In this document: positions 20,431 to 33,317 of the stretch, in pieces
How positions within the stretch are numbered: position 1 is the stretch's first letter
Layout: every line of letters starts with the position of its first letter
NCBI RefSeq assembly: GCF_041248615.1
Contig: NZ_CP158426.1
Strand: one strand, 5' to 3'
From: Escherichia coli
GTDB taxonomy: Bacteria; Pseudomonadota; Gammaproteobacteria; Enterobacterales; Enterobacteriaceae
Length of the DNA stretch: 64,000 bases
Program-made: the position numbers and the translations under genes
The notes under the pieces: model-generated
What the model was told of the DNA's origin: nothing
Database searches by the model: none
What the model saw: only the letters and a program-made list of their open reading frames with translations

Positions 20431-20520
20431 TTTATTAACGCTATTGTAAAACTGCCGTTTTTCCTCGTTTACAACGCGTGCGCTGGACATTACCATCCTC
20501 CTCTGCGATTTATCATCGCA

Positions 20521-20599
20521 ACCAAACGACTCGGGGTGCCCTTCTGCGTGAAGGCTGAGAAATACCCGTATCACCTGATCTGGATAATGCCAGCGTAGG
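20521..20599 (+). repeat. attL: 79-bp direct repeat identical to 33186..33264, a copy of the thiM TPP-riboswitch aptamer sequence (without the 3' strand of P1) joined to the thiM promoter side
   Basis: Exact 79/79 identity: ACCAAACGACTCGGGGTGCCCTTCTGCGTGAAGGCTGAGAAATACCCGTATCACCTGATCTGGATAATGCCAGCGTAGG. The sequence is the conserved thi-box/TPP aptamer. Confidence 0.85.
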
Positions 20600-20684
20600 T
20601 TGCCAACATTCTGATTAGTATTCATGTGGTTACATTTCTTTTTGTCCGTGTGTAATGCACCTAATGTACAAAAAGAGCGTAAAC

Positions 20685-21986
20685 ATGAGGTACAAAACTC
20701 TTCCATACACGTTTCAAAGAAACGGTAATTACTATCTACAGATTCGGCTTTCGAATGGTCGGATGTATAAAAAATCACTTCTCACTGACAGCTATCGTGA
20801 AGTCTCTGCTTTGATGATTGGTGTTGCTCCGTACATTCCTTTTGTTAAATCATTAGCCATCACAATCCCGATGTTTGATGCCTTTGTTTCAAACCTGATT
20901 ATGTCAAAACTTAGGGCTGTAAAAGTTCCGCTGCTATCACATCAGTCGGTAATTACCCCTGCTACATTCGAGGAACCAGCGACACAAGCCGAACCGCAAA
21001 ACATGCTAACTCTTTCTGATGCGTGGGCTATGTATAAAGCGGAAAAGGGTAAAACATGGACAAAGTCGATCTCAAGGGCGAATGAGCGTTACATGGAAGT
21101 CTTGATGGTTGTCTTGGGAGAGACAACTGACGTAGTTGCGATTTCTAAGCAGGACATCAAGCAGGTGATGGAAGTTGTTGAGAATTTGCCTAAGCGTGTT
21201 GTCCAACCGTATCGCTCAATGAACATCCAGCAACTGATTGAATGTGATGATGTATCACCGAATGAGTTAGTAGGAGTGGAAGCCATTCATAAGCATCTCA
21301 AAATCTACAAATCGCTTTTCAAGACTTTTCTAACAGAAAACAAAGATATTTTGATTAAATCCCCAACTGATGGGGTAGTAGCAGCACCATCTAAAGCAAG
21401 GTTTGGAGCATACAGTTCGGCGGAGATGAAGAAGTTTGTAGAGTGGGCACTTAAGCAGCCAGATGGCTGGCAGAAGTGGATAACATTGTTGTTGGCATAC
21501 ACAGGAGCCAGAAGGGGAGAAATTGCCAAACTGGAAAAATCACAAATAAAATATGATGAGGATAGCCATCGGTATTATTTCCTGATTGCAGAAGGAGGGC
21601 AGGGGAAAACCGAAAATGCTACCCGACAAGTAGTGATACACCCTAAGTTGATCGAATGGGGTTTCATGGAATACGTTGATCGCCAGTGGAAAGAACGGAT
21701 TTTTTCAGAAGTGGCTGGTACAAACATGACGAAGATCGGTAAAGAATTTGCTGATGTGCGTGACCAGCTTGACATTCCGTACTTAGACGATTTTGGACAG
21801 CGGAGGCTTTTGCATAGCATTCGTCATTCTGTTTGCTCTACTGCGATGGCTGGATGGGTAAAGAACATCTTGCATCTGCAACAAACAGTAGGCCATGAGA
21901 AAAGTGGAGGGATCACTAAACGCTACTTACATACGTTCCCACTATCATCAATTTGTTATGTTATTGATGGGATTAGTTGGGTCTGA
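20685..21986 (+). CDS. int: Tyrosine integrase of the island (433 aa from 'MRYKTLPYTF'; the provided ORF starts at 20655)
   Basis: C-terminal catalytic signature 'LHSIRHSV' (H-x-x-R) and '...KRYLHT' (Tyr); directly adjacent to the attL repeat. Confidence 0.8.
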   Translation: MRYKTLPYTFQRNGNYYLQIRLSNGRMYKKSLLTDSYREVSALMIGVAPYIPFVKSLAITIPMFDAFVSNLIMSKLRAVKVPLLSHQSVITPATFEEPATQAEPQNMLTLSDAWAMYKAEKGKTWTKSISRANERYMEVLMVVLGETTDVVAISKQDIKQVMEVVENLPKRVVQPYRSMNIQQLIECDDVSPNELVGVEAIHKHLKIYKSLFKTFLTENKDILIKSPTDGVVAAPSKARFGAYSSAEMKKFVEWALKQPDGWQKWITLLLAYTGARRGEIAKLEKSQIKYDEDSHRYYFLIAEGGQGKTENATRQVVIHPKLIEWGFMEYVDRQWKERIFSEVAGTNMTKIGKEFADVRDQLDIPYLDDFGQRRLLHSIRHSVCSTAMAGWVKNILHLQQTVGHEKSGGITKRYLHTFPLSSICYVIDGISWV

Positions 21987-22129
21987 AACTGCTAAGAATG
22001 ATAGGAAAAGCTACTTAATGATCCTTAGTTTTGGATGAAATTGAAGATTACAAAGATCTTGAGCGAATAAGAGCGTTTTTTAATCAAAAAAGCCATAAAA
22101 ACTTTTCTTGACTGTATATTAACACAGTG

Positions 22130-22146
22130 CTTCTACTATGTAGAAG
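22130..22146. promoter_or_regulatory. Perfect palindrome CTTCTACtatGTAGAAG overlapping a TTGACT (-35-like) element upstream of the nuclease/helicase operon; candidate operator
   Basis: Seen directly. The hexamer TTGACT is at 22110-22115. Confidence 0.3.
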
Positions 22147-22203
22147 AAATCGACATGAAAAATTTGATATGGTAAATTTTATCCATGATAACAAAAAGGT
22201 ATT

Positions 22204-23106
22204 GTGGATATGTTACTACCAATACGAGTTCATAAACGATTTCTAACTTTATTTAAGACTTTGCAAATTGACGATTGCCCACCGCAATCAACTTTAAATA
22301 TTCATGTACTTAATATCGAAAGCAATGAATTTATATACTGTAAATTAGTTGAAGAATTACGTGACATAATAATTACTTATGTACATTCGAATAGAAGGCT
22401 TGAGGAGTTTAAGGAAAGTTATCCTTCGTATAGCCCTAAACCTTTTTTCGAAGCAATACAAAAATTTCGCAATTATACGTCAAACGAAGGTGAGTTAGGT
22501 GAACTGCTTTTATACGCTTTTCTTGAAACAGGACTAAATGCTCCGAAATTACTTTCCAAAATGCAATTGAAAACAGATTCTAATGATTACATTAAGGGTT
22601 CTGATGGTGTACATCTGTTAGAATTAGATGATGGTTATCAATTAATATTTGGAGAATCAAAGCTCTATGCCGATCTTTTAGAAGGTGCTCGAGAAGCGTT
22701 TGATTCTATTTTAGATTTTAAAAGTAATGGAATGGCATTTGAAAGAGGGCTGATAGATACACACGTTATAAATGAAATGGTTTCAGAAGAAGGTTATGAG
22801 AAAATAAAATCAATTCTTCTTCCTTCTTCTGGCGATGATGGGCCAGATCTTGATTTATCCTTTGGTATATTTCTTGGTTTTGAATTGAAAATAGATAGCT
22901 CACAGTTATCATTGAAAAACAAAGAGTTTAGAGATTGGGTTAATGAGTCCGTGAAACAACATGCTACTCGCGTGGTCAGTACGATACGAAGGAAAATTAT
23001 TAATCATAAATTATATGGTCACGAATTCCACATATATATAGTTCCTTTTACCGATATTGATGTTACACGAAAAAAATTAATTCATGAAATGCTAACAATT
23101 AAGTGA
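22204..23106 (+). CDS. PD-(D/E)xK nuclease-like protein, candidate HamA (DUF1837-like) of a Hachiman-type defence system
   Basis: Motif 'HLLELDDGYQLIFGESKLY' (D...E-x-K). Its stop overlaps the start of the downstream helicase gene (ATGA-type coupling). AT-rich island cargo. Confidence 0.5.
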   Translation: MDMLLPIRVHKRFLTLFKTLQIDDCPPQSTLNIHVLNIESNEFIYCKLVEELRDIIITYVHSNRRLEEFKESYPSYSPKPFFEAIQKFRNYTSNEGELGELLLYAFLETGLNAPKLLSKMQLKTDSNDYIKGSDGVHLLELDDGYQLIFGESKLYADLLEGAREAFDSILDFKSNGMAFERGLIDTHVINEMVSEEGYEKIKSILLPSSGDDGPDLDLSFGIFLGFELKIDSSQLSLKNKEFRDWVNESVKQHATRVVSTIRRKIINHKLYGHEFHIYIVPFTDIDVTRKKLIHEMLTIK

Positions 23107-25691
23107 ACACTATGAATGAATTAAATTCAAGTAAAAACATTCATTTGGCAGCTCGTCTTGCAGATGATGCTTTTGAAAGTGCTTATTTTAAAGAAATCAA
23201 TAAGTTTATAAGTGGTTTATACAATTACAGTTTATTTAACTGCGATTCAGATGTTAGTCTCTCCGAGAGTGATAACAATAAAATAGCACACGCTTTGCGT
23301 TTTGCAGATATATTTTCACATTCTTCAAAAGAAAATCATAGATCATGTGCATTTGAAATTATAAGTAGAATAGCCTTATTAAAAAAACATGATCCTTATT
23401 TTAAATTTATAGGTACTGCTGTTATTAATCGGCTTGGGGTTTATGCAGCAGAAAAACTCATATCAAAAGGGGTAAAATTACCCTTAGATAGAGAAGTTGA
23501 TTCTATTATTAAAAAATCAGTTCAGAAAACAGATGAAGATGGAGTATATTTCACTGATAAACAACATGAGTTATACAAACTTTTAAAAAGTAGCAAAACA
23601 ATTAGTTTTGCTGGTCCCACTTCGATGGGAAAGTCATTTGTTATTAATGCATACATTAAGGAAATAACTCTTAAAAAAGAGCTTAAAAATATAGCTTTAA
23701 TTGTTCCTACACGGGCTTTAATAAGCCAAAATGCACTTAAGTTAAAAATTGATATTGCATTGTATAAGAATGAAAGCCCTTATAAAGTTGTTACGACATC
23801 CTACATTATTAATGGTGATGAAAGTAAAAATAAAGGCTATATTTTTATTCTCACCCCAGAAAGGCTGGTTAGTCTCATAAGCACTATTCCTGGACTAATG
23901 ATTGATTATGTTTTTGTAGATGAAGCTCAAAAGTTAACAACAAAAAATGATTCGAGGAGTCTTGTTACTTATTCAGCTATAGAGCAAACAATTAGTAAAA
24001 ATCCTGAGGCAAGATTATTCTTCTCTTCACCTAATTTATCTAATCCTGAAATATTTAATATTTTGTTTGATAGAAAAGACGCTTCGGTATATAGAAATAC
24101 AGAAGGTGCAACTACTCAGAATATGTATTTTATTGATCTTTTAAATAGCAGCTTTAGCTATGTTAATACCGAGAAAAGGACGCTTGAAAAAATAGATGAG
24201 ATCTCTAATACTTACACGAATACAAATGATGTTATCTATAAATTAAATAATGGTAAAAGTAAAATAATTTATTGTGGGGGGATAGAAAGCACGCTTGAGA
24301 GAACACGTAGCTTTATCAATTATCTCAAAATTAATAAGAAAAAAAGAAAGCATTTAAATTTAGAAATATCTTCTGAGATAAGAAACTTTGTTCATGATAA
24401 CTATGAACTTGCAGAAGCCATCAACTATGGTGTTGCTTTCCACTTTGGAAACTTGCCTCAATCGATTCGAGATTTAATTGAGCATCATTTCAAAATAGGA
24501 AATATTGACTATCTATTCTGTACATCAACCCTACTTGAGGGAGTCAATTTACCTGCAAGATCCGTATTTATTCTTACGCATAAAAAAGGCCCCAGTCCAT
24601 TAGAGTCGGTTGATTTTTGGAATCTGGCTGGGAGAGCTGGGCGATTATCTATGGAATTGTCAGGGGATATTTTTTGTATTAGGGATGATAATAAGCTTTG
24701 GAATAAAAAAGCTGTTGATAATATCCTTCTGTCTGACAAAAATAACATTTCATTAAAGCCAAGCTTCTATATTGAAGACGAAAAAAGATTGAACGATTTA
24801 CACCATATAATTACGACTGGTAAAACAGGGAATATTAAAAATGCTGAGTTCCTTAGAACTTTAGGAGATATGATAAGAATAGACACTCTGAGGGATTCTA
24901 AAGAACTTCCTCTTATTAGTTATTTCCAAAGCAGTGGAAAATCAGAAATTTTGTTAAGTGCAGAAAAAAGCACTGAAAATATTACCATGCCAATGAATAT
25001 CCTTTTGGCAAATAGTCATATTGCGATTGATTCGCAGTATCATGCTTTTAAAAAAATAAAAAGCCTTACAGTTAAGGAACTGAAATTATCATGGCAGCCT
25101 ACATACGAAGAAATTAAAGAAAAATTGAATTTGATATTCGATATTTACCAAGTTGAAAAGTTTGCAACAGGTAGAGAACGTCTTTATTTAAATTCAATTC
25201 CATATTATGCAGTATTACTGTTTCAATGGATTCGTGGAAATAGTCTACAGGAAATTATCTCGGGGGCAATTGCTTATAGAAAGAACAAAAGTATATATAT
25301 TAAAAATACACCTGTTCTTTTTGACAGCGAAAACCCAGCTCATTTAACTGCATTAGTTAATGAAACTATAAAAGACATTGAGTTGCGTGTAGGTTACCAG
25401 TTACAAAATTATTTTTCACATTACTGTCAGCTTCTGAATTATGTGTTACAAGGAAATCCAGGGGCAAACTGGTCTCAGTTCATTGAGTTTGGCTCTAATG
25501 AGCCAATAGTATGGCACCTACAAATGATGGGCTTTTCAAGGGATAGTGCAGTTTTTCTCAAGAAGAATTTTTCAAAACATCTTAAACTTGATAATGAAAT
25601 GAATAAACTCATCATAATGGATAAGGAACTGATCAAGCGTTCTTTCAAAAAAGATGGACTACATTACTTAGAAATCCAATCGTTATTATAA
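23103..25691 (+). CDS. SF2 helicase (862 aa), candidate HamB of a Hachiman-type defence system
   Basis: Walker A 'AGPTSMGKSF', motif II 'VFVDEAQKL', motif III-like 'FSSPN', 'TSTLLEGVNLPA' and motif VI 'LAGRAGR'. Translationally coupled to the upstream nuclease-like gene. Confidence 0.55.
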   Translation: MNTMNELNSSKNIHLAARLADDAFESAYFKEINKFISGLYNYSLFNCDSDVSLSESDNNKIAHALRFADIFSHSSKENHRSCAFEIISRIALLKKHDPYFKFIGTAVINRLGVYAAEKLISKGVKLPLDREVDSIIKKSVQKTDEDGVYFTDKQHELYKLLKSSKTISFAGPTSMGKSFVINAYIKEITLKKELKNIALIVPTRALISQNALKLKIDIALYKNESPYKVVTTSYIINGDESKNKGYIFILTPERLVSLISTIPGLMIDYVFVDEAQKLTTKNDSRSLVTYSAIEQTISKNPEARLFFSSPNLSNPEIFNILFDRKDASVYRNTEGATTQNMYFIDLLNSSFSYVNTEKRTLEKIDEISNTYTNTNDVIYKLNNGKSKIIYCGGIESTLERTRSFINYLKINKKKRKHLNLEISSEIRNFVHDNYELAEAINYGVAFHFGNLPQSIRDLIEHHFKIGNIDYLFCTSTLLEGVNLPARSVFILTHKKGPSPLESVDFWNLAGRAGRLSMELSGDIFCIRDDNKLWNKKAVDNILLSDKNNISLKPSFYIEDEKRLNDLHHIITTGKTGNIKNAEFLRTLGDMIRIDTLRDSKELPLISYFQSSGKSEILLSAEKSTENITMPMNILLANSHIAIDSQYHAFKKIKSLTVKELKLSWQPTYEEIKEKLNLIFDIYQVEKFATGRERLYLNSIPYYAVLLFQWIRGNSLQEIISGAIAYRKNKSIYIKNTPVLFDSENPAHLTALVNETIKDIELRVGYQLQNYFSHYCQLLNYVLQGNPGANWSQFIEFGSNEPIVWHLQMMGFSRDSAVFLKKNFSKHLKLDNEMNKLIIMDKELIKRSFKKDGLHYLEIQSLL

Positions 25692-25771
25692 AACTGCCGA
25701 ATCAGAGTCTTTTATTGATTCTGATTCGCACTTATATAGTTAAATCAAAAGGAGCATTAAAATTTTTCAGT

Positions 25772-25795
25772 AGCGATTTAGTATGCTAAATCGCT
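25772..25795. other. 10-bp perfect inverted repeat AGCGATTTAGtatgCTAAATCGCT between the helicase gene and the resolvase gene (hairpin; possible terminator or site)
   Basis: Seen directly. Confidence 0.35.
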
Positions 25796-25999
25796 GCATA
25801 ACGAATCTGCTTCTAAATCTTGATTAAGTGTTTCGAACTGCCTTGATTGTTTATTGCTACACTTTATAATTAATCGCAACACACAAAACAATACAATGTA
25901 GGCAGTTGCACAGAATTAATTACAGGCACATTATGGATATCGAGAGGATTCGAACAGTTTTAAACTGCAAGCCCTTTGACTTTATCCCCTCCTACTATA

Positions 26000-26575
26000 T
26001 CAGCGTTTGATGCCGCTAATACTGGCAAGCATTTCTTTCTTCACACGAAAAACTGTAGCCCTGCCGCAATCACATAACTTTGCTATCTCGTCTGGTGTAT
26101 TCTTCCCGGCCTGTAACATATCGATAATCTTGTTATGTAGCTCTTTGTTCTTTTGCTTGCCCTTGTACTTCTTAGCCTCTTTAGCAAGAGCAATCCCCTC
26201 ATTGCGACGAGATGCGATCATACCCCGCTCAAATTCTGCAGCGGCTCCCATCATGGTTAGGATAAGGCGTGATTGTGGGGAATTATCAAAACTCATAGAG
26301 TTTGCAAGGAATTGAACAGTGATTCCACGAGCCACGAGGTTATCAATCATTTCCAGCAAATCGCGGGTATTACGTGCAAGGCGATCAATCGAGTGAGTAA
26401 CGAGCGTGTCACCTTCGCGGAGGTGTGAAAGCAGGTTCAACAATTCAGGTCTTTCGCTGGTGGACTTACCTGATTCTTTCTCTGCCACAATTTTGTCACA
26501 AACAGGTTCCAGCACTGCCAACTGACGCTCAAGATTTTGATCCTTTGTTGAGACTCTCGCGTAACCAAAAATCAT
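26000..26575 (-). CDS. Serine recombinase (resolvase/invertase family, 191 aa)
   Basis: N-terminus 'MIFGYARVSTKDQNLERQ' carries the catalytic Ser motif of resolvase/Hin-family enzymes; C-terminal helix-turn-helix region. Confidence 0.9.
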   Translation of the reverse strand: MIFGYARVSTKDQNLERQLAVLEPVCDKIVAEKESGKSTSERPELLNLLSHLREGDTLVTHSIDRLARNTRDLLEMIDNLVARGITVQFLANSMSFDNSPQSRLILTMMGAAAEFERGMIASRRNEGIALAKEAKKYKGKQKNKELHNKIIDMLQAGKNTPDEIAKLCDCGRATVFRVKKEMLASISGIKR

Positions 26576-26599
26576 TTTCCTGCCCTCACTTACGTGAAA

Positions 26600-26663
26600 A
26601 GTATCATTTGAATTTACTTAATGATACAGTATCATTTAAATGCATTCAACATCTAAATGATAC
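26600..26663. promoter_or_regulatory. res-like recombination site array upstream of the resolvase gene: GTATCAtttgaatttacttaaTGATAC and AGTATCATTTAAATG...CATCTAAATGATACT inverted repeats
   Basis: Repeated TGATAC/GTATCA half-sites seen directly; typical location 5' of the resolvase gene. Confidence 0.45.
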
Positions 26664-27125
26664 TAAACGAGACGAGAAAAGCGAGTATCGTTAGGGAGTA
26701 CCCAAAAGAGATTTTTGATCGTGCGTTTTTTAGTCAATGTAGGGTTAGTGAAAAGTTCAGTACCGAGATCTGAGTTCACGGCATTTTGTCGACGGGGTTG
26801 AACCTGATTAGGCGAACGAGATTTTAAATCAGGCGGAATAAAACAAGTTGTACTTTTATCTGAGTAAAAGATCCCTTTAACTTTTTAGTCAGAAATCGTG
26901 ATACTAGGGGTTTGGTTATTTTGTGTCCTTAAGGCCAGTACTTTTAGCGAGGACGAAAAAACGGCCTACATGAGAACGCTTACAGTAACTTAAGTATATT
27001 ATCCAAAAAGTCACTTAACTTAAATCAATTTGGATGCAAAATCGCCACACTTTGCAAGTGAACACATACCGGGCAACAAGCAAATAAAAAAGGCCACTTT
27101 CGCGACCTTGTACCAGTACAAACAC

Positions 27126-27485
27126 TCATTCAGAACGATCAAGTACCATATATGCTGGCTGACACATGCTGCCCCGCTCCTGTAGCCAGTAGTAATCAAG
27201 ATCGGCAACACGCACGTCCAATCCAGAATCTACACGGTTGATCTGTAACCGTAGCCCTACAGTATCCTTGTACGATAAACCAGATTTAACATTGTATTTG
27301 TACTTAACACCGTTTTCCTGTTCAAACTGTTTAAGGAAAGGCGTCATTTGTTTCTGAATTTCTTTCAAACAAATAACCTCATTATCAATAGCAAAGGGGG
27401 GTTCTGTTTTTCCATCAGGTACAGCAGCCTGTAAATGAAAGGAAGTACTCAACAATAACAGCATTGCAACAGAAGTCTTTTTCAT
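27126..27485 (-). CDS. Small secreted protein (119 aa, signal peptide 'MKKTSVAMLLLLSTSFHLQA'), unknown function
   Basis: Signal peptide followed by a two-Cys mature domain; 43 nt downstream of the membrane protein gene on the same strand. Confidence 0.6.
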   Translation of the reverse strand: MKKTSVAMLLLLSTSFHLQAAVPDGKTEPPFAIDNEVICLKEIQKQMTPFLKQFEQENGVKYKYNVKSGLSYKDTVGLRLQINRVDSGLDVRVADLDYYWLQERGSMCQPAYMVLDRSE

Positions 27486-27528
27486 TTTAATTCCTTATTA
27501 AAGAACAGTACATTATATTTCAATGGAC

Positions 27529-28569
27529 TTAATAACAATATTTTATATTTCCTTCGGGTTTTCTCATGCATTTAATTCCTTCAGGAATATAATCAGTTAC
27601 GGGAGCAGGTCTGGCATCAGGTCTTGAAAGACGATTGGATATAGAAGACAACAGACTGAAAACACACTCATTAAATGATTTTTGATATTTATTTTTTTCA
27701 TAAAAGTACTGCATGGTGATTTTATCTCTTTCGTATTGCAATTCTTTGCCAAGCTGAATCCTATCCATATCAATTCCATTTCTCATAGCATTAAATCTTT
27801 CGTTCAATAAATTAAATTGAGATTTATTCCATTCATTTAAAGGAAATAAAGAATTGTTAAGCCTTTGCCTACAATTAGATTGCTCGATAGCTGACATGTA
27901 TTCTTTCATACTAACGCCAATATCTAAGTATGTGAGTTGTCCAGCAGTTCTATCAACTGAGTTATTAGGGTAAGATTTAATTTCAGTAAGTATTGACTCT
28001 GTTAATACTGCATTTTCTTCTAAATCTTTGCTAATAGTTATTTGAGCTTGTTCTCTTTTATCCTTATCAAATATTGAAATGTATTTCTTTACTATATCCT
28101 GATTAGCTTTCTCGGCTGCTACTAACGCATCTTGAACCTTCTTTTCCGCCGCTTTAACTCGTTGTTCTTCTACAAATTTCGCGTAGTCATCAGTATTTGT
28201 AATGTGATTTTCACGAGCGATAGAAAACTCTTTACTATCTTTAAAACCAAGTTTTTGTGCTCTGGCTCCATCGCTTGAAGATCGGGCAGAACTTGCCACG
28301 AAAGCGAGCACAATGATCAGTACAGGAACCGTATAATTATTAACGAGTTTATAGGGTAAGAACTTCGCTTTAAGCGTACCATAACCCAAAACAGCCCAGC
28401 CTATCGCGGCAGTACTTGCCAGTAGCTGGCACAATCCAGCGACGGAAAGCATGATTACCGACCAGAAGCCTGTACCGACTGCGAAAAGATCACCAAATTT
28501 CTCCATTGACGCAAGGAATAAAAACACTCCCCAAATGCCATAAAATCCTATTTTCAAATATTTACTCAC
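27529..28569 (-). CDS. Membrane protein (346 aa): three N-terminal transmembrane helices plus a long charged/coiled-coil domain, unknown function
   Basis: Hydrophobic stretches at residues ~7-28, 37-62 and 74-95, followed by a Lys/Glu/Gln-rich region; AT-rich codon usage. Confidence 0.6.
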   Translation of the reverse strand: MSKYLKIGFYGIWGVFLFLASMEKFGDLFAVGTGFWSVIMLSVAGLCQLLASTAAIGWAVLGYGTLKAKFLPYKLVNNYTVPVLIIVLAFVASSARSSSDGARAQKLGFKDSKEFSIARENHITNTDDYAKFVEEQRVKAAEKKVQDALVAAEKANQDIVKKYISIFDKDKREQAQITISKDLEENAVLTESILTEIKSYPNNSVDRTAGQLTYLDIGVSMKEYMSAIEQSNCRQRLNNSLFPLNEWNKSQFNLLNERFNAMRNGIDMDRIQLGKELQYERDKITMQYFYEKNKYQKSFNECVFSLLSSISNRLSRPDARPAPVTDYIPEGIKCMRKPEGNIKYCY

Positions 28570-29552
28570 CGCAATTATCCTTTAATAATTTTCCAAATCG
28601 ATGGTTCGTTCTATTTGTATTATCGACAATAATTCGTTTGCCTTTAGGTAGATCCCTTAAAAAGGAATCCCCCCAAAATTTATAGATTAGCAGTTGTACC
28701 ACTCTCACTGTTTTGTCACTCCCATTATCTTCTCTCAGGTCAAAAGTACGGACTTAAAGCCGTCCGTGTTCAGGTGCTCAAGAGTAGCACGCATATCAAT
28801 AAATGATCGATAAAAACGATCAATTAATGGCTTATTGATCGCTATAACCTATCAATGACTATTAATTCAATACAAATCAATAGGTAAAATCGATCAAGAG
28901 GATTCGTCATCCATGAAAGGGGTTATGTATCTGATTTCAATACAGGGAGTATTAGCGATACCATCACGCAAACGCTCTTAAAGCGTAGCTACGGCGTTTT
29001 GTAGGGTTTTTGGTCATTCATGTGTGTCAGTAATGAACATCGCATTCAGGGGCTTCCTGTGCGTTTTGTCCGAAACACCATCATGAAGGGGGACAGATCG
29101 GATCGGGGTCGCTTCGCTCTGGTCAGTACTGGATAGTTCTTTTCCAGTAACTGAAACCGCAGATACCCCACTAAGTACACAAAGGAATTATTTGTAGAAT
29201 AAGTAATGAAATAACAGTCAGTTATGTACTTACTGACAGAACTAAAAACGCGATTAGGTTCGCTCTGTCAGTGACCGAAGGGAACGCAACAGTAGAATCT
29301 AATCCAGCGAACAGTACACGCAAGCGGGTGCTGTTTAATTGTTTTATCTATGTAAACAATGGGATAGCTATCAAGTACTCACTGCGTGAGCACTCTCACT
29401 AACTACCCGAAACAGTTCGCTTGCTTCGCCGCTCCTACTTTCAGGTAGTTAATTCGCTTTCGCTCGTTGTGATGTCCGAAATTTATTACCTATAGTATTA
29501 TAAGGTATTATTTTCCGGACATTTATGTATTTTTATGATGGTGTTCTGGACA
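28570..29552. other. ~1-kb non-coding region with a GATC/ATCAAT-rich AT-rich cluster (28795-28900) and at least six TTCGCT iteron-like repeats in both orientations (29107-29471); candidate origin or regulatory region
   Basis: No ORF of 60 aa or more. Repeats 'ggtCGCTTCGCTCtggtcag', 'ggTTCGCTCtgtcagtg', 'cagTTCGCTtgcTTCGCcgc', 'aaTTCGCTTTCGCTCg' and 'cAGCGAAcagtac'. Four GATC sites lie within 100 bp. Confidence 0.4.
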
Positions 29553-31028
29553 TCATTTTTTGCTTTTTTGTACTTCCTTTTCGTATTTGTTCCACATAGC
29601 CTTTTGCTCTTCGGGACTGAGTGCTGTATTACCACTGGCAAGAAACACCTTGAACGCTTCTAACTCAAGCCCTGGGTTGCGGCTTTTCCAGCGGCGAAAA
29701 CGCTTAGCGTGATTATCATCAAGAGTGAAACGCTTTTGCTTATTCTTTGAACCTTGCGGCCTGCCTCTCGACCTCTGCTCATCATCAATACCGATATCTA
29801 TATACTCAATATTATCTGTAAGAGATCTGGCTTGCCATTCATCAAAAACATAAACAGTCTGTGTTTCAGTACTGTCAAAATCCCTTGAAATTCCTCGTAG
29901 TACGAACTGGTGTAAACTTTCGTACTCCCTCGCAACATGTATCGCCTCGCCGTCAATCTCAAAGAACAATTCGCACTGTTTAGCCTCTGTTTCAGAGGGA
30001 CGCATACAAGCGAGCCAGACGCACGTGAGCAAGTGTTGGTACTGGTTAAACCCTCTGGCATCCGGGCTTATCTCTGTGCCGTTTTTGAGGCTCTGAGAAT
30101 CGCTTTTGTTCTTCGTCCAGTAGAAATCCTGTCCCTCAAGTTTTTTATCAATAAATGAGTATATTTTTTGTACTTTATCAGGGTTATTAGTCTTCCATGT
30201 CTTCGATAGTTTTTGATTTTTTGAGAAGTAATAAACCTTTAATCTGTCTTTGAGAGCTGTTTTTCGTGTCAGTAATCCTCCAAGTTCAGTACTTTCAAAG
30301 AGTTCTTTATTGCCTTTATAGATCAATGAATTTTCGAAATTAGCTCCGAGAAAGGTGATTGATACGTCTTTGTACTTACTGAGATCTTTCCATGCGGTAA
30401 TATTAAGCTGTTCCTTTTTCGCATCGGTAAAGTACTCATTATTCATGATGAACATATCATTTTCGTTAATTGCTGGTAGCTGGTTCAAAATATTCTTCAG
30501 TACTTCCCCTTGTATTTCTGGTTTTCTTTCTGCCGCAATATACATATTTTTATCATCTAATGTCAGTACATTGTGTATTAATGAATTAAGAATTGTATTT
30601 TTTATATTAGTATCACCCTCATTAATATTCTGAAAAGAGTGAAAATTAGTAACGTCGTCAATATAAATATTACAGTCAGATAACAATTCAGGAGGAATTT
30701 TGAAAAACGTTTTATCTGTTATGAGTAATGTTTTATTACTTCCAGATGAAAGAAAGTTAATAACTGAATTAATAACACTTTCATCTTTTGGTACTGTATC
30801 TGTAATTATATACTCGCAATTATTGATTTGCTTTGCTGTCTGCTTAATAAGTTCTTGAGTGTTCTGTACTAAAATATATTTTTCAGTACTGTTATTGATT
30901 ATATTGCATATAGCAGTAGTTTTACCTGAACCACAAGGGGCGGAGACATACTTAAATTTATTATAAATAGGTGTGGGATTAATCATTTGTACACGCTCCA
31001 TATTGATTAATGTAGAAAGGTCAGCCAT
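29553..31028 (-). CDS. P-loop NTPase (491 aa) with C-terminal AT-hook-like motif; candidate Rep/helicase-like replication or mobilisation protein
   Basis: Walker A 'SAPCGSGKTTAI' near the N-terminus; Walker B-like 'IYIDDV'; C-terminal 'SRGRPQGSKNKQKR' (AT-hook GRP core). Confidence 0.6.
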   Translation of the reverse strand: MADLSTLINMERVQMINPTPIYNKFKYVSAPCGSGKTTAICNIINNSTEKYILVQNTQELIKQTAKQINNCEYIITDTVPKDESVINSVINFLSSGSNKTLLITDKTFFKIPPELLSDCNIYIDDVTNFHSFQNINEGDTNIKNTILNSLIHNVLTLDDKNMYIAAERKPEIQGEVLKNILNQLPAINENDMFIMNNEYFTDAKKEQLNITAWKDLSKYKDVSITFLGANFENSLIYKGNKELFESTELGGLLTRKTALKDRLKVYYFSKNQKLSKTWKTNNPDKVQKIYSFIDKKLEGQDFYWTKNKSDSQSLKNGTEISPDARGFNQYQHLLTCVWLACMRPSETEAKQCELFFEIDGEAIHVAREYESLHQFVLRGISRDFDSTETQTVYVFDEWQARSLTDNIEYIDIGIDDEQRSRGRPQGSKNKQKRFTLDDNHAKRFRRWKSRNPGLELEAFKVFLASGNTALSPEEQKAMWNKYEKEVQKSKK

Positions 31029-31370
31029 TCCAGTGTCTGGCCTTTCGTTGTTTTAGTTATTAGTCTTTTTGAGTTGCGACAACTGCAAGAGAATGTTTAT
31101 AAACAAGTGAAATAAGCAGTTTTACCGCCTCAAAAGCTACAGTCAGTTTCGTAATTATTTTCGAAAGCATCGTAAATTTCACTTCGCTATCTTCTATGCA
31201 AAAATTAGCAGCCTGAGGTATTTAATGATTGAGATGTGGCCTGTTGATAAGAGGGTTTGTATTGCTTGTTCTGCTCTTTGTTAATTTGTGACTTATTCCT
31301 TTCACAATGATCGGCTATGTTTGATAACTCTGTTAGGAAATCACCTATGGCTACCATATTGGATTTGCCC

Positions 31371-32276
31371 CTATATTTCCAGACACCTGTTATCACTTAA
31401 CCCATTACTGGCCTGCTGCCGCAGATATTCCCGTGGCGAGCGATAACCCAGTGCACTATGCGGATGCCATTCGTTATAATGCTCGAACGCCTCTGCAAGG
31501 TTCTTTGCTGCCGTTAACCCGTCTGGTTTAGGCATGATACTGATGTAGTCACGCTTTATCGTTTTCACGAAGCTCTCTGCTATGCCGTTACTCTCCGGAC
31601 TCCGCACCGCCGTGTTCTTCGGTTCAAGCCCCAATATCCGGGCAAACTGCCGTGTTTCATTAGCCCGGTAGCATGAACCATTATCCGTCAGCCACTCTAC
31701 TGGAGACGCCGGAAGCTCGTTGCCGAAGCGGCGTTCCACCGCTCCCAGCATGACGTCCTGTACTGTTTCACTGTCGAAGCCGCCCGTAGTGACTGCCCAG
31801 TGCAGTGCCTCACGGTCACAGCAGTCCAGCGCGAACGTGACTCGCAGTTTTTCTCCGTTATCACAGCGGAACTCGAACCCGTCAGAGCACCATCGTTGAT
31901 TGCTTTCTTTCACGGCCACTTTGCCAGTATGTGCCCGTTTCGATGGCGGTACAGCGGTTTTTCGCTCAAGCAACAGCGCATTCTGGCGCATGATCCGGTA
32001 AACACGTTTGGCATTGATCGCAGGCGTACCATCAAGTTCGGCCTGTCTGCGAAGCAGCGCCCATACCCGACGATAACCATACGTGGGCAGCTCTCCGATA
32101 ACATGGTGTATACGGAGAAGCACATCCGTATCATCTGAGTGACGGCTGCGGCGACCATCTTTCCAGTCATCGGTTCGTCTGAGAATTACGTGCAACTGCG
32201 CACGCGACACCCGGAGACAACGGCTGACTAAGCTTACTCCCCATCCCCGGGCAATAAGGGCGCGTGCGCTATCCAC
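31371..32276 (-). CDS. insD: IS2 transposase OrfB (InsD, 301 aa)
   Basis: Translation '[30 protein letters not shown]...' and DDE transposase region. Confidence 0.9.
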
Positions 32277-32599
32277 TTTTTTGCACGCCCGTATTCAACG
32301 GCTTCTTTAAGGAGTTCATTTTCCATCGTTTTTTTGCCGAGCAGGCGCTGGAGTTCTTTAATCTGCTTCATGGCAGCAGCAAGTTCAGAGGCAGGAACGA
32401 CCTGCTCTCCTGCGGCCACAGCAGTAAGACTTCCCTCCTGGTATTGCTTGCGCCAGAGAAATAACTGGCTGGCTGCCACACCGTGTTGCCGGGCAACAAG
32501 GGAGACCTTCATTCCCGGTTCAAAACTCTGCTGAACAATAGCGATCTTTTCCTGTGTAGTACGCCGTCTGCGTTTCTCCGGTCCTAAGACATCAATCAT
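32234..32599 (-). CDS. insC: IS2 OrfA (InsC, 121 aa from '[18 protein letters not shown]')
   Basis: Helix-turn-helix protein overlapping insD in the -1 frame, as in IS3-family elements. Confidence 0.9.
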
Positions 32600-33073
32600 C
32601 TGCTCTCCAATGACTAGTCTAAAAACTAGTATTAAGACTATCACTTATTTAAGTGATATTGGTTGTCTGGAGATTCATGGGGCCAGTCTACATATAATCA
32701 TGTTCATCTTCTAATTCTTTAAATTTTAATAGAGAAATCTCTTCATAATATTCTTTCATTTTCATATAAATCACCTTTTATTTTTTTGTTGTTAACACAG
32801 GTTTTTTTCTGCACTACACATTATAGCACATAGAATTAATTCGTTTCATTTTCTGTCAATGAAATAGAGTAAAGATAAATGCTTTTATAAAGCACTTATC
32901 ACATCCGTTGCCTTGCTATATATAAAAAGTTCTCCAAACTATACTGGTGTATATTTTCCCCATCAGATACAGTTGTTTTTAAACATTACAATGTTGGATT
33001 CTTGGTTCCAAATAAATCGAGCAACTATTAGTGTTTCAAAATGAAGTTGGGAGCTATTCCTTAATTCGTATGA

Positions 33074-33102
33074 GGTACAAAATGGGGTACTCGGTGGGGT
33101 AC
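33074..33102 (+). promoter_or_regulatory. Three direct repeats of GGTAC at 12-bp spacing (aGGTACaaaatgGGGTACtcggtgGGGTACag), ~85-110 bp from the att core; candidate integrase/Xis arm-type sites. A 13-mer ATGAGGTACAAAA (33069-33081) recurs at the int start codon (20685-20697)
   Basis: Seen directly. Confidence 0.35.
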
Positions 33103-33185
33103 AGCGTGTATAAGTGACGTCACCACGGGTAAACTTGCATCGGCGAGCAACTTAACCTAAGCTGACAAAAATTAAGAGAAATGTA

Positions 33186-33317
33186 ACCAAACGACTCGGG
33201 GTGCCCTTCTGCGTGAAGGCTGAGAAATACCCGTATCACCTGATCTGGATAATGCCAGCGTAGGGAAGTCACGGACCACCAGGTCATTGCTTCTTCACGT
33301 TATGGCAGGAGCAAACT
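33186..33317 (+). ncRNA. thiM TPP riboswitch (aptamer plus expression platform) preceding thiM; its first 79 nt (33186-33264) form the attR direct repeat
   Basis: Conserved thi-box sequence CUGAGA...ACCUGAUCUGGAUAAUGCCAGCG; its 3' continuation 'GAAGTCACGGACCACCAGGTCATTGCTTCTTCACGTTATGGCAGGAGCAAACTATG' carries the anti-Shine-Dalgarno/Shine-Dalgarno platform. Confidence 0.85.

Follow-up and report, generated by a model that had tools for sequence, protein, structure and literature searches.

Most of the catalogued bacterial defences act in the cytoplasm, after the phage DNA has entered, and to our knowledge the exclusion modules that act at the envelope are few, mutually unrelated, and almost never found by homology-based tools. 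In the superinfection exclusion (Sie) of phage T4, Imm is a membrane protein and Sp (spackle) is a periplasmic lysozyme inhibitor, and the Ltp protein of Streptococcus thermophilus has a helical external domain that is thought to bind the tape-measure protein. Proteins of the LprI/DUF1311 family inhibit lysozyme and have been predicted to act as immunity proteins in the periplasm (PMC12135965), and integrase-only defence islands, the mobility of which is unknown, have been described in Escherichia coli (Hochhauser et al. 2023; PMC10121019). Here, a pair of genes was analysed in a 64,000-nt stretch of E. coli DNA (contig NZ_CP158426.1 of assembly GCF_041248615.1; the whole stretch is called the window). 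The genes, designated mem346 and small119, encode a predicted inner-membrane protein and a small secreted protein, and lie in a chromosomal island at thiM. The pair is a fixed part of the backbone of a family of ~9-13 kb islands of the Enterobacterales, in which the integrases and the defence cargo are interchangeable. Its location in an anti-phage island, the predicted exposure to the periplasm, the swapping of the C-terminal domain of the membrane protein, and the replacement of the small partner by LprI proteins favour a function in envelope protection; as judged from these sequence comparisons, the pair most likely protects the envelope against incoming phage or bacterial weapons.

Gene pair and its position in the island backbone

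Two open reading frames (ORFs) for proteins of 346 and 119 aa, separated by 43 nt, had been noticed in an earlier reading of the window (the original prediction). Both were confirmed on the minus strand, with mem346 as the upstream and small119 as the downstream gene, and the RefSeq coding sequences agree, the products being the hypothetical proteins WP_000049760.1 and WP_001578623.1. The homologues of mem346 and small119 formed 106 and 204 clusters at 90% identity, respectively, and the dN/dS ratio relative to orthologues was ~0.10 for the mature part of small119 and 0.17-0.27 for the first 150 codons of mem346. These clusters and the low dN/dS values indicate that both ORFs are genuine genes under purifying selection and not chance ORFs. 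A terminator-like hairpin with a T-run downstream of small119 (Table 1) likely ends the two-gene operon. The original prediction had raised the possibility that the pair is co-transcribed from the putative ori region, but a second hairpin with a T-run sits between the TTGAT(C) repeats and mem346, and a search for a sigma-70 promoter upstream of mem346 gave no good match. When 1.84 billion cluster representatives were searched exhaustively with a hidden Markov model (HMM), only 33 relatives of mem346 (representatives at 50% identity) were obtained. The named sources of relatives were mainly Enterobacterales (E. coli, Klebsiella, Enterobacter, Yersinia, Serratia, and Pectobacterium), with distant ones in Aeromonas.

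The order helicase-like gene, ~1 kb of non-coding DNA, membrane gene, and secreted gene was conserved in every helicase- and spacer-bearing island sampled. Within E. coli, this block was found in islands at ppdD, yggR/yggS, ffs-ybaA, and ybhA; it was also present in Klebsiella and Raoultella (at ffs), Enterobacter, Leclercia, Pantoea, Pectobacterium, and one metagenome contig, and looser arrangements of it occurred in Aeromonas and other metagenome contigs. The same backbone was accompanied by a tyrosine integrase at thiM and ffs or by large serine recombinases at ppdD, yggR/yggS, and ybhA (the window and loci L001, L013, L012, and L028), indicating that integrase modules have been swapped within the family. 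The pair or part of it was detected in 80 of 5426 complete E. coli genomes (~1.5%), and the non-coding region in 54 complete E. coli genomes (~1%). The membrane and secreted genes lay directly downstream in all three of the matches to the non-coding region that were chosen for their low coverage or identity (H97, H105, and H107). In locus L015, the tethered protein and small119 are kept without the helicase and most of the non-coding region. No paper was found that names the four RefSeq accessions looked up or describes this island backbone.

The variable cargo, which lies between the pair and a small serine recombinase, comprises Hachiman, a STAND/AVAST-type ATPase, a Cap4-nuclease with an AAA protein, and an HNH protein with DUF6998, and further SMODS/SLATT, DuOB/DUF488/DUF4326, DarTG, and a reverse transcriptase. 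Most of it thus consists of recognised defence systems or of domains associated with defence. The pair, in contrast, has a fixed position in the backbone and is not incidental cargo. Moreover, the pair is the only payload between the helicase and the resolvase in L016, L031/32, and L033, and it therefore likely confers a benefit by itself.

Exchange of the C-terminal domain and of the secreted partner

Compared with the island of L013, which has another integrase, another integration site, and other cargo, the island of the window shows 97% identity from the helicase-like gene through the non-coding region to nt 440 of mem346. The homology between them ends at codon 147, within the predicted stalk helix, comes back at 77-80% in small119, and appears again in the serine recombinase. 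The nucleotide homology breaks at position 28127 in the comparisons with L013, L016, and L005 and at position 28107 in those with L014 and L017, and the 5' part of mem346 is 85-97% identical to islands with unrelated C-terminal domains. Such a sharp break flanked by conserved DNA shows that the C-terminal domain of mem346 is an exchangeable cassette. Protein alignments revealed at least five unrelated C-terminal domains on the same anchor of ~150 residues. The domains include type A (337-350 aa, with subtypes), type B (~257 aa, with four Cys and an FKWTDG motif), type C (~300 aa), and the L015 and P0238 types, and further types occur in distant relatives. An exchange of cassettes of this kind is expected in an arms race. 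Switching of the C-terminus by an invertase was also considered and rejected, since the window island showed neither silent cassettes nor inverted crossover sites.

The secreted partner was found to be exchangeable as well. The small119 protein follows type A domains of the window subtype, type B domains, and the beta-domain protein of L015, which is anchored by two transmembrane helices (2-TM). In the same slot, LprI (PF07007) proteins were found after type C (L016), a type A subtype (L031/32; E value of 6.1e-18), and the P0238 type (L026). In Enterobacter, Pectobacterium, a prophage, and a metagenome contig, A'-type domains are followed by a secreted protein of 105-107 aa, with or without one of 129-143 aa, and this type of domain goes with the 105-aa-type partner across anchors and taxa (L004, L033, L038, L025, and L009). 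Fusions of parts of the partners with LprI were found in Aeromonas (348 aa) and L025 (199 aa), and LprI occurs within the downstream secreted protein or proteins of L025 and L009. P0249 unites LprI and the helical A' domain behind a signal peptide in one polypeptide, and this fusion indicates cooperation between the two parts and not antagonism. The replacement by LprI and the fusion with it point to a probable link between the pair and lysozyme inhibition, and the shared genomic slot suggests that small119 may be functionally equivalent to the LprI proteins.

Predicted topology of mem346

The three TM helices that had been proposed for the N-terminal part of mem346 were seen at residues 3-28, 35-63, and 80-106 in both the hydropathy analysis and the AlphaFold2 model (mean predicted local distance difference test score, pLDDT, of 78.6). 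They are followed by a short helix (residues 112-120) bearing a near-invariant juxtamembrane motif (KLGFKDxKEF..ARENxI..DY), a single long charged stalk helix of ~40 residues (residues 126-164), a compact helical bundle (residues 169-309, pLDDT > 90), and a C-terminal hairpin. The soluble part of ~250 aa is all-helical and ~30% charged. Its size and high charge are as originally described, but the model consists of the long helix and the bundle and not of a classical long coiled coil.

The positive-inside count gave five Lys in the N-terminal tail and loop 2 versus one in loop 1, corresponding to an N-in, C-out orientation. Cys 233, 302, 334, and 345 were invariant in 20 full-length homologues, including the Aeromonas one at 33% identity, and the helical domain recurs after a Sec signal peptide (P0249) and after 2-TM hairpin anchors with the loop KKxxRxKGRGK. 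On the basis of the charge distribution, the invariant Cys residues, and the occurrence of the same domain behind a signal peptide or 2-TM anchors, the C-terminal ~250 residues are predicted to face the periplasm and not the cytoplasm, between which the original prediction had not decided. A lysozyme or lytic-transglycosylase fold for the all-helical domain, an idea derived from the LprI partners, was rejected because no such match was obtained.

The membrane module contains invariant polar or small residues (W13, G14, K24-F-G-D27, G32, G34, S37, C47-Q48, and W58). A comparison of the TM region (residues 11-93) with Ninjurin-1, a eukaryotic protein of membrane rupture, gave a Foldseek probability of ~0.5 and repeated PDB profile matches with E values of 0.18 or more, none of which is significant, and the resemblance is probably due to chance.

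Secreted protein small119 and searches for relatives

The small119 protein begins with a signal peptide of n-h-c structure (MKK, TSVAMLLLLSTSF, and HLQA, followed by AVP), which differs between homologues, whereas the mature protein of 98 residues is 70-99% conserved across the Enterobacterales. The two Cys residues mentioned along with the signal peptide in the original prediction, C39 and C108, are invariant; the first Cys is residue 39, and there is no lipobox. The structural model was weak (pLDDT 62) and showed a helix against a four-stranded sheet with a weak NTF2/cystatin-like match. A spanin or lysis cassette was ruled out by the absence of a lipobox and of an endolysin, the neighbouring genes being a resolvase and a helicase-like gene.

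Neither protein gave a match in Pfam, NCBIfam, PADLOC, or PHROGs, and no catalytic or family motif was recognised, consistent with the earlier reading. Neither matched any family of PADLOC-DB v2 at E <= 1, and small119 matched nothing in Pfam, PF07007 included, at E <= 10. Sequence-profile searches of the PDB with the type A, type B, and small119 families yielded nothing, and no fold match in the PDB was found for mem346 or small119. The remote-homology check by sequence profiles and fold search thus returned no significant relative of either protein, and clear homology to a housekeeping envelope protein, which was also looked for, was not seen. Similarly, no sequence or structural homology was found between the pair and the characterised Sie proteins (T4 Imm/Sp, P22 SieA, HK97 gp15, P1 Sim, and Cor/Llp). 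The general guess of an exclusion or abortive-infection (Abi) module was reasonable, in that envelope protection is the best-supported class, but membership of a known Sie, Abi, or defence family fails on the homology evidence from sequence and fold.

Host island and non-coding region

The island in the window has a length of 12.7 kb (20520-33264). Its two ends carry an exact 80-bp direct repeat, by which part of the thiM thiamine pyrophosphate (TPP) riboswitch is duplicated. A TPP riboswitch copy that scores in Rfam is present at both ends of the island (58 and 71 bits), and RefSeq annotates the attR copy, before thiM. The att repeats and the integrase place the pair in a mobile element, and the TM helices, the signal peptide, and the invariant Cys residues place its products, by prediction, in the inner membrane and periplasm. 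The genes are arranged in the order integrase, HamA, HamB, serine recombinase, small119, mem346, 983 nt of non-coding DNA, hel491, and IS3 (Table 1).

Table 1. Features of the gene pair and its island; positions are those of the window.
Feature	Position	Strand	Description
mem346	27529..28569	-	346-aa inner-membrane protein (predicted); GTG start, AAGGA 7 nt upstream
mem346, conserved 5' part	28127..28569	-	codons 1 to ~147: anchor, motif, and start of stalk
mem346, exchangeable 3' part	27529..28126	-	type A helical domain
small119	27126..27485	-	119-aa protein with Sec signal peptide; ATG start, AAGGA 6 nt upstream
Terminator-like hairpin with T-run	27090..27109	-	17 nt past the small119 stop codon
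Conserved non-coding region	28570..29552		983 nt between hel491 and mem346; always directly upstream of the pair
Repeat cluster	28799..28897		6 TTGAT(C) repeats and 4 GATC sites, direct and inverted
attL	20520..20599	+	80-bp exact direct repeat within duplicated TPP riboswitch
attR	33185..33264	+	second 80-bp copy, thiM TPP riboswitch
Tyrosine integrase	20655..21986	+	island integrase
Hachiman	22204..25691	+	hamA 22204-23106, hamB 23103-25691; variable defence cargo
Small serine recombinase (resolvase/DNA invertase type)	26000..26575	-	conserved other flank of the variable segment
hel491	29553..31028	-	P-loop protein, 491 aa; SF2/ResIII-like N-terminus, phrog_2467
IS3-family transposase ORFs	31371..32644	-	inserted between hel491 and attR

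A 24-kb part of the window was 100% identical to NZ_LT599825.1. The G+C content was 29-43% in the island core (22000-31000) versus ~50% in the flanking chromosome, consistent with a foreign origin. HamA and HamB matched their PADLOC models with E values of 2.4e-120 and 8.3e-296, respectively. A sub-threshold Rfam match to CRISPR-DR61 inside hamB (25393-25430; 26.4 bits versus a gathering threshold of 38, E value of 0.75) is almost certainly due to chance, with no repeat array. The hel491 product has a ResIII-like Walker A motif and a weak CyRepA1 match; its gene is the signature gene of the island family and encodes a putative replication protein. The IS3 insertion is missing from otherwise identical islands, and L003 has a gene for a 74-aa hypothetical protein there instead. 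Genes for a relaxase, mating-pair formation (MPF), or a capsid were not found among the scanned ORFs of the island, nor were relaxase or MPF genes present in the Pfam lists of the related loci. Conjugative entry or surface exclusion (TraS/Eex, TraT, or TrbK) was ruled out, as no conjugation genes were found. A 10.5-kb metagenome contig, considered as a candidate circular form of the island, proved to be linear chromosomal context.

The small serine recombinase is 92-94% identical across the Enterobacterales and still shows 88% protein identity in Aeromonas rivuli (L009, 12209-12823), where the membrane protein and the helicase-like protein have only 31% and 36%, respectively. Possible explanations are a recent exchange of this gene and a role as a conserved recombination arm during the swapping of cargo.

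The non-coding region upstream of mem346 is the best-conserved part of the island family, with 83-99% nucleotide identity across genera, and it stays ~88% identical even where the adjoining helicase-like protein is only 55% identical. No Rfam match and little covariation were found when it was analysed as RNA, and its substitutions lack the 3-nt periodicity of a coding sequence. As the original prediction had pointed out, the pair adjoins this region, which was called a putative ori there and is rich in repeats. The four GATC sites of the repeat cluster lie within ~100 bp, versus ~3.4 per kb island-wide, and the TTGAT(C) repeats are possible iterons or operators. A DnaA box was not detected. 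Long hairpins are present in the non-coding region, and in the Klebsiella and Raoultella islands an element of ~63 nt (about 29365-29427) occurs a second time, upstream of the helicase gene. The region may serve as an origin, a transfer site, or a packaging site, and, together with the island family, it may merit no less attention than the pair itself.

A distant version of the module was found at the left end of a complete prophage (L038, 4523-20744), where it comprises a large serine recombinase, an HNH gene, a helicase-like gene, a spacer, a 2-TM A'-domain protein, and a 107-aa secreted partner. The prophage has genes for TerS, a GpA-type TerL, a portal, and a protease-capsid protein, which suggests that the island backbone is of phage origin. 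The left end of a prophage is a typical position of exclusion morons, and the module found there points to a phage pedigree.

Functional interpretation

The explanation that we favour, tentatively and by analogy, is that the pair is a periplasmic exclusion module comparable to T4 Imm/Sp. The 3-TM module of mem346 would anchor the protein in the inner membrane, the juxtamembrane motif and the stalk helix would hold the exchangeable, disulphide-bonded domain in the periplasm, and the Sec-exported small119 would act alongside it as a soluble periplasmic factor. A component of an invading machine that crosses the envelope, most probably ejection, tape-measure, or tail-tip proteins of a phage, would be bound by the tethered variable domain, and the soluble partner would neutralise a periplasmic activity that comes with this machine, for example a peptidoglycan hydrolase. 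In this way, genome entry would be blocked and the cell would not be killed. Recombination between the two conserved flanks, the 5' half of the gene on one side and the genes downstream on the other, would swap the domain and thereby direct the module to a different invader.

Several results weigh against this explanation. The small119 family is not detectably related in sequence to LprI or the other partners, as its hhalign comparison with three alternative partners (129, 138, and 348 aa; one with an LprI domain) gave a probability of <1%. The pair was missing from 50,697 sequenced phage genomes and from the IMG/VR contigs, and IMG/VR contained neither a relative of mem346 nor an identical copy of a conserved 26-mer from the non-coding region. 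The helicase-like gene was essentially absent from sequenced phages and plasmids, and only one or two Pantoea megaplasmids carried the pair, ordinary plasmids being without it; these phage, plasmid, and virome results provide no evidence that the island is packaged. In Pectobacterium (L033, 5021-5995), part of the non-coding region has given way to the genes for an S24-peptidase CI-like repressor and a divergent Ner/HTH_35 protein. The membrane-gene operon lies immediately downstream of this switch, on its Ner/Cro side, suggesting that the operon is expressed on induction (SOS or other) rather than constitutively. Finally, the position in the backbone could equally mean a role in the life cycle of the island.

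Such a role, in which the pair would serve induction, helper exploitation, transfer (by a change of the envelope at lysis or exit of a helper phage), or exclusion of a second copy, is nevertheless quite improbable. It would account for the invariant position just downstream of the putative replication module in all the helicase- and spacer-bearing islands sampled, for the operon on the Ner/Cro side of the L033 switch, and for the related module within a prophage. However, unrelated C-terminal folds swapped on a near-identical backbone are difficult to square with a mechanical role that is conserved, L015 keeps the tethered protein and its partner without the replication part, and the lack of a lipobox or endolysin means that the pair is not a spanin or lysis cassette. 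The nearest rival, which we consider unlikely, is interbacterial immunity, whereby the same periplasmic shield would be formed by orphan immunity proteins against the peptidoglycan-degrading effectors of type VI secretion systems (T6SS) or against bacteriocins. All the partners have signal peptides, like periplasmic immunity proteins, the LprI/DUF1311 partners belong to a class predicted to confer T6SS immunity against lysozyme-like effectors, and the 129-aa partner has one weak, non-significant Imm27 match. In L036 (3220-12209) and L037, moreover, a type B membrane protein, two small secreted proteins (78 and 120 aa), and the serine recombinase are located between two Hcp-DUF4225 T6SS modules. 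The other cargo of the islands is anti-phage and not anti-bacterial, however, no cognate effector gene lies nearby in the Enterobacterales islands, and small119 is highly conserved and follows unrelated domains, unlike specific immunity proteins.

In abortive infection, judged here to be as unlikely as interbacterial immunity, the variable periplasmic domain would sense a phage cue (injection or lysis), the 3-TM module would permeabilise the inner membrane, and small119 would restrain it up to the moment of infection. The conservation of the membrane module with its invariant polar and small residues, set against a variable, sensor-like domain, would suit this mechanism, as would the co-location with defence systems and the weak resemblance to Ninjurin-1; but the latter is below any significance threshold, no PADLOC model matches, and the occurrence of the domain on a signal peptide or a 2-TM hairpin makes the anchor look like a tether and not an effector. 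In an addiction pair, the C-terminal domain of mem346 would be toxic to the envelope of its own cell and the secreted partner would be the antidote, thereby stabilising the island. The conserved N-terminus, variable C-terminal domain, and small gene directly downstream are the signature of polymorphic toxins, and the A'-type domain co-varies with the 105-aa-type partner across anchors and distant taxa. On the other hand, small119 is found behind three or more unrelated C-terminal domains and behind two anchors, the LprI part of P0249, which would be the antidote, is joined to the domain that would be the toxin, and no toxin or enzyme motif or fold was recognised in Pfam or in the PDB sequence and fold searches. 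The fusion and the promiscuity of small119 weaken the toxin-antidote explanation, which we regard as very improbable.

If the periplasmic exclusion module that we favour is taken further, the pair may be viewed as the hallmark of undescribed, phage-derived 'hitcher' islands and of a new modular, cassette-programmable periplasmic immunity, although this broader proposal is doubtful at present. A 'hitcher' island would consist of an integrase, a helicase-like Rep protein, ~1 kb of non-coding DNA, the tethered module, swappable defence cargo, and a small serine recombinase. The constant tether and the constant soluble factor would present interchangeable recognition domains, and these would determine the phage or secreted weapon that is halted at the envelope. 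If true, this would be a programmable barrier acting ahead of any cytoplasmic defence. The fixed position, the exchangeable domain, and the pairing and fusion with LprI provide a concrete, testable hypothesis of a periplasmic barrier with swappable specificity, and the pair marks a family of islands that move defence systems between chromosomal sites with interchangeable integrases.

Comparison with known systems

The island family fits the integrase-only E. coli defence islands of PMC10121019. Like those, it consists of small chromosomal elements with an integrase or recombinase and defence cargo (Hachiman, AVAST, and others) and without relaxase, MPF, or capsid genes. In the main text of PMC10121019, by contrast, neither thiM nor ppdD is named, nor is any serine recombinase or resolvase, and the account of integrase-only islands there does not include a backbone of helicase-like gene, 1-kb non-coding region, and membrane-periplasmic pair. 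The predicted periplasmic topology, the backbone status, the breakpoint at codon 147, and the link to LprI are added here.

The combination of a constant N-terminal part, sharply bounded unrelated C-terminal cassettes, and small downstream genes is shared with contact-dependent inhibition (CDI) systems, Rhs proteins, colicins, and the tail fibres of Mu and P1, and as in cassette-swapping systems, a serine recombinase of the invertase/resolvase type is nearby. In contrast to the polymorphic toxins among these (CDI, Rhs, and colicins), the pair has no toxin domain, its downstream gene does not appear to be strictly linked to the cassette, and mem346 is, by prediction, anchored in the inner membrane of the producer itself. 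The LprI/DUF1311 (PF07007) proteins resemble small119 in being small periplasmic proteins with a signal peptide, and they fill its slot in L016, L026, and L031 and are joined to the A' domain in P0249 and in the 348-aa protein of Aeromonas; the small119 model is of the alpha+beta type, however, whereas LprI is helical.

The pair differs from T4 Imm and Sp in having no sequence or fold similarity to them, in the far larger size of mem346 (3-TM anchor, stalk, and exchangeable 190-aa domain), and in forming one operon in an integrative island and not in a lytic phage. Like Imm and Sp, it is encoded by a mobile element, combines one predicted inner-membrane protein with one small Sec-exported periplasmic protein, and has a probable link to lysozyme inhibition. 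Similarly, mem346 resembles HK97 gp15, P22 SieA, lactococcal Sie2009, and Ltp of S. thermophilus, all of which are variable proteins borne by temperate elements, with an anchor in the cytoplasmic membrane and an exposed external domain.

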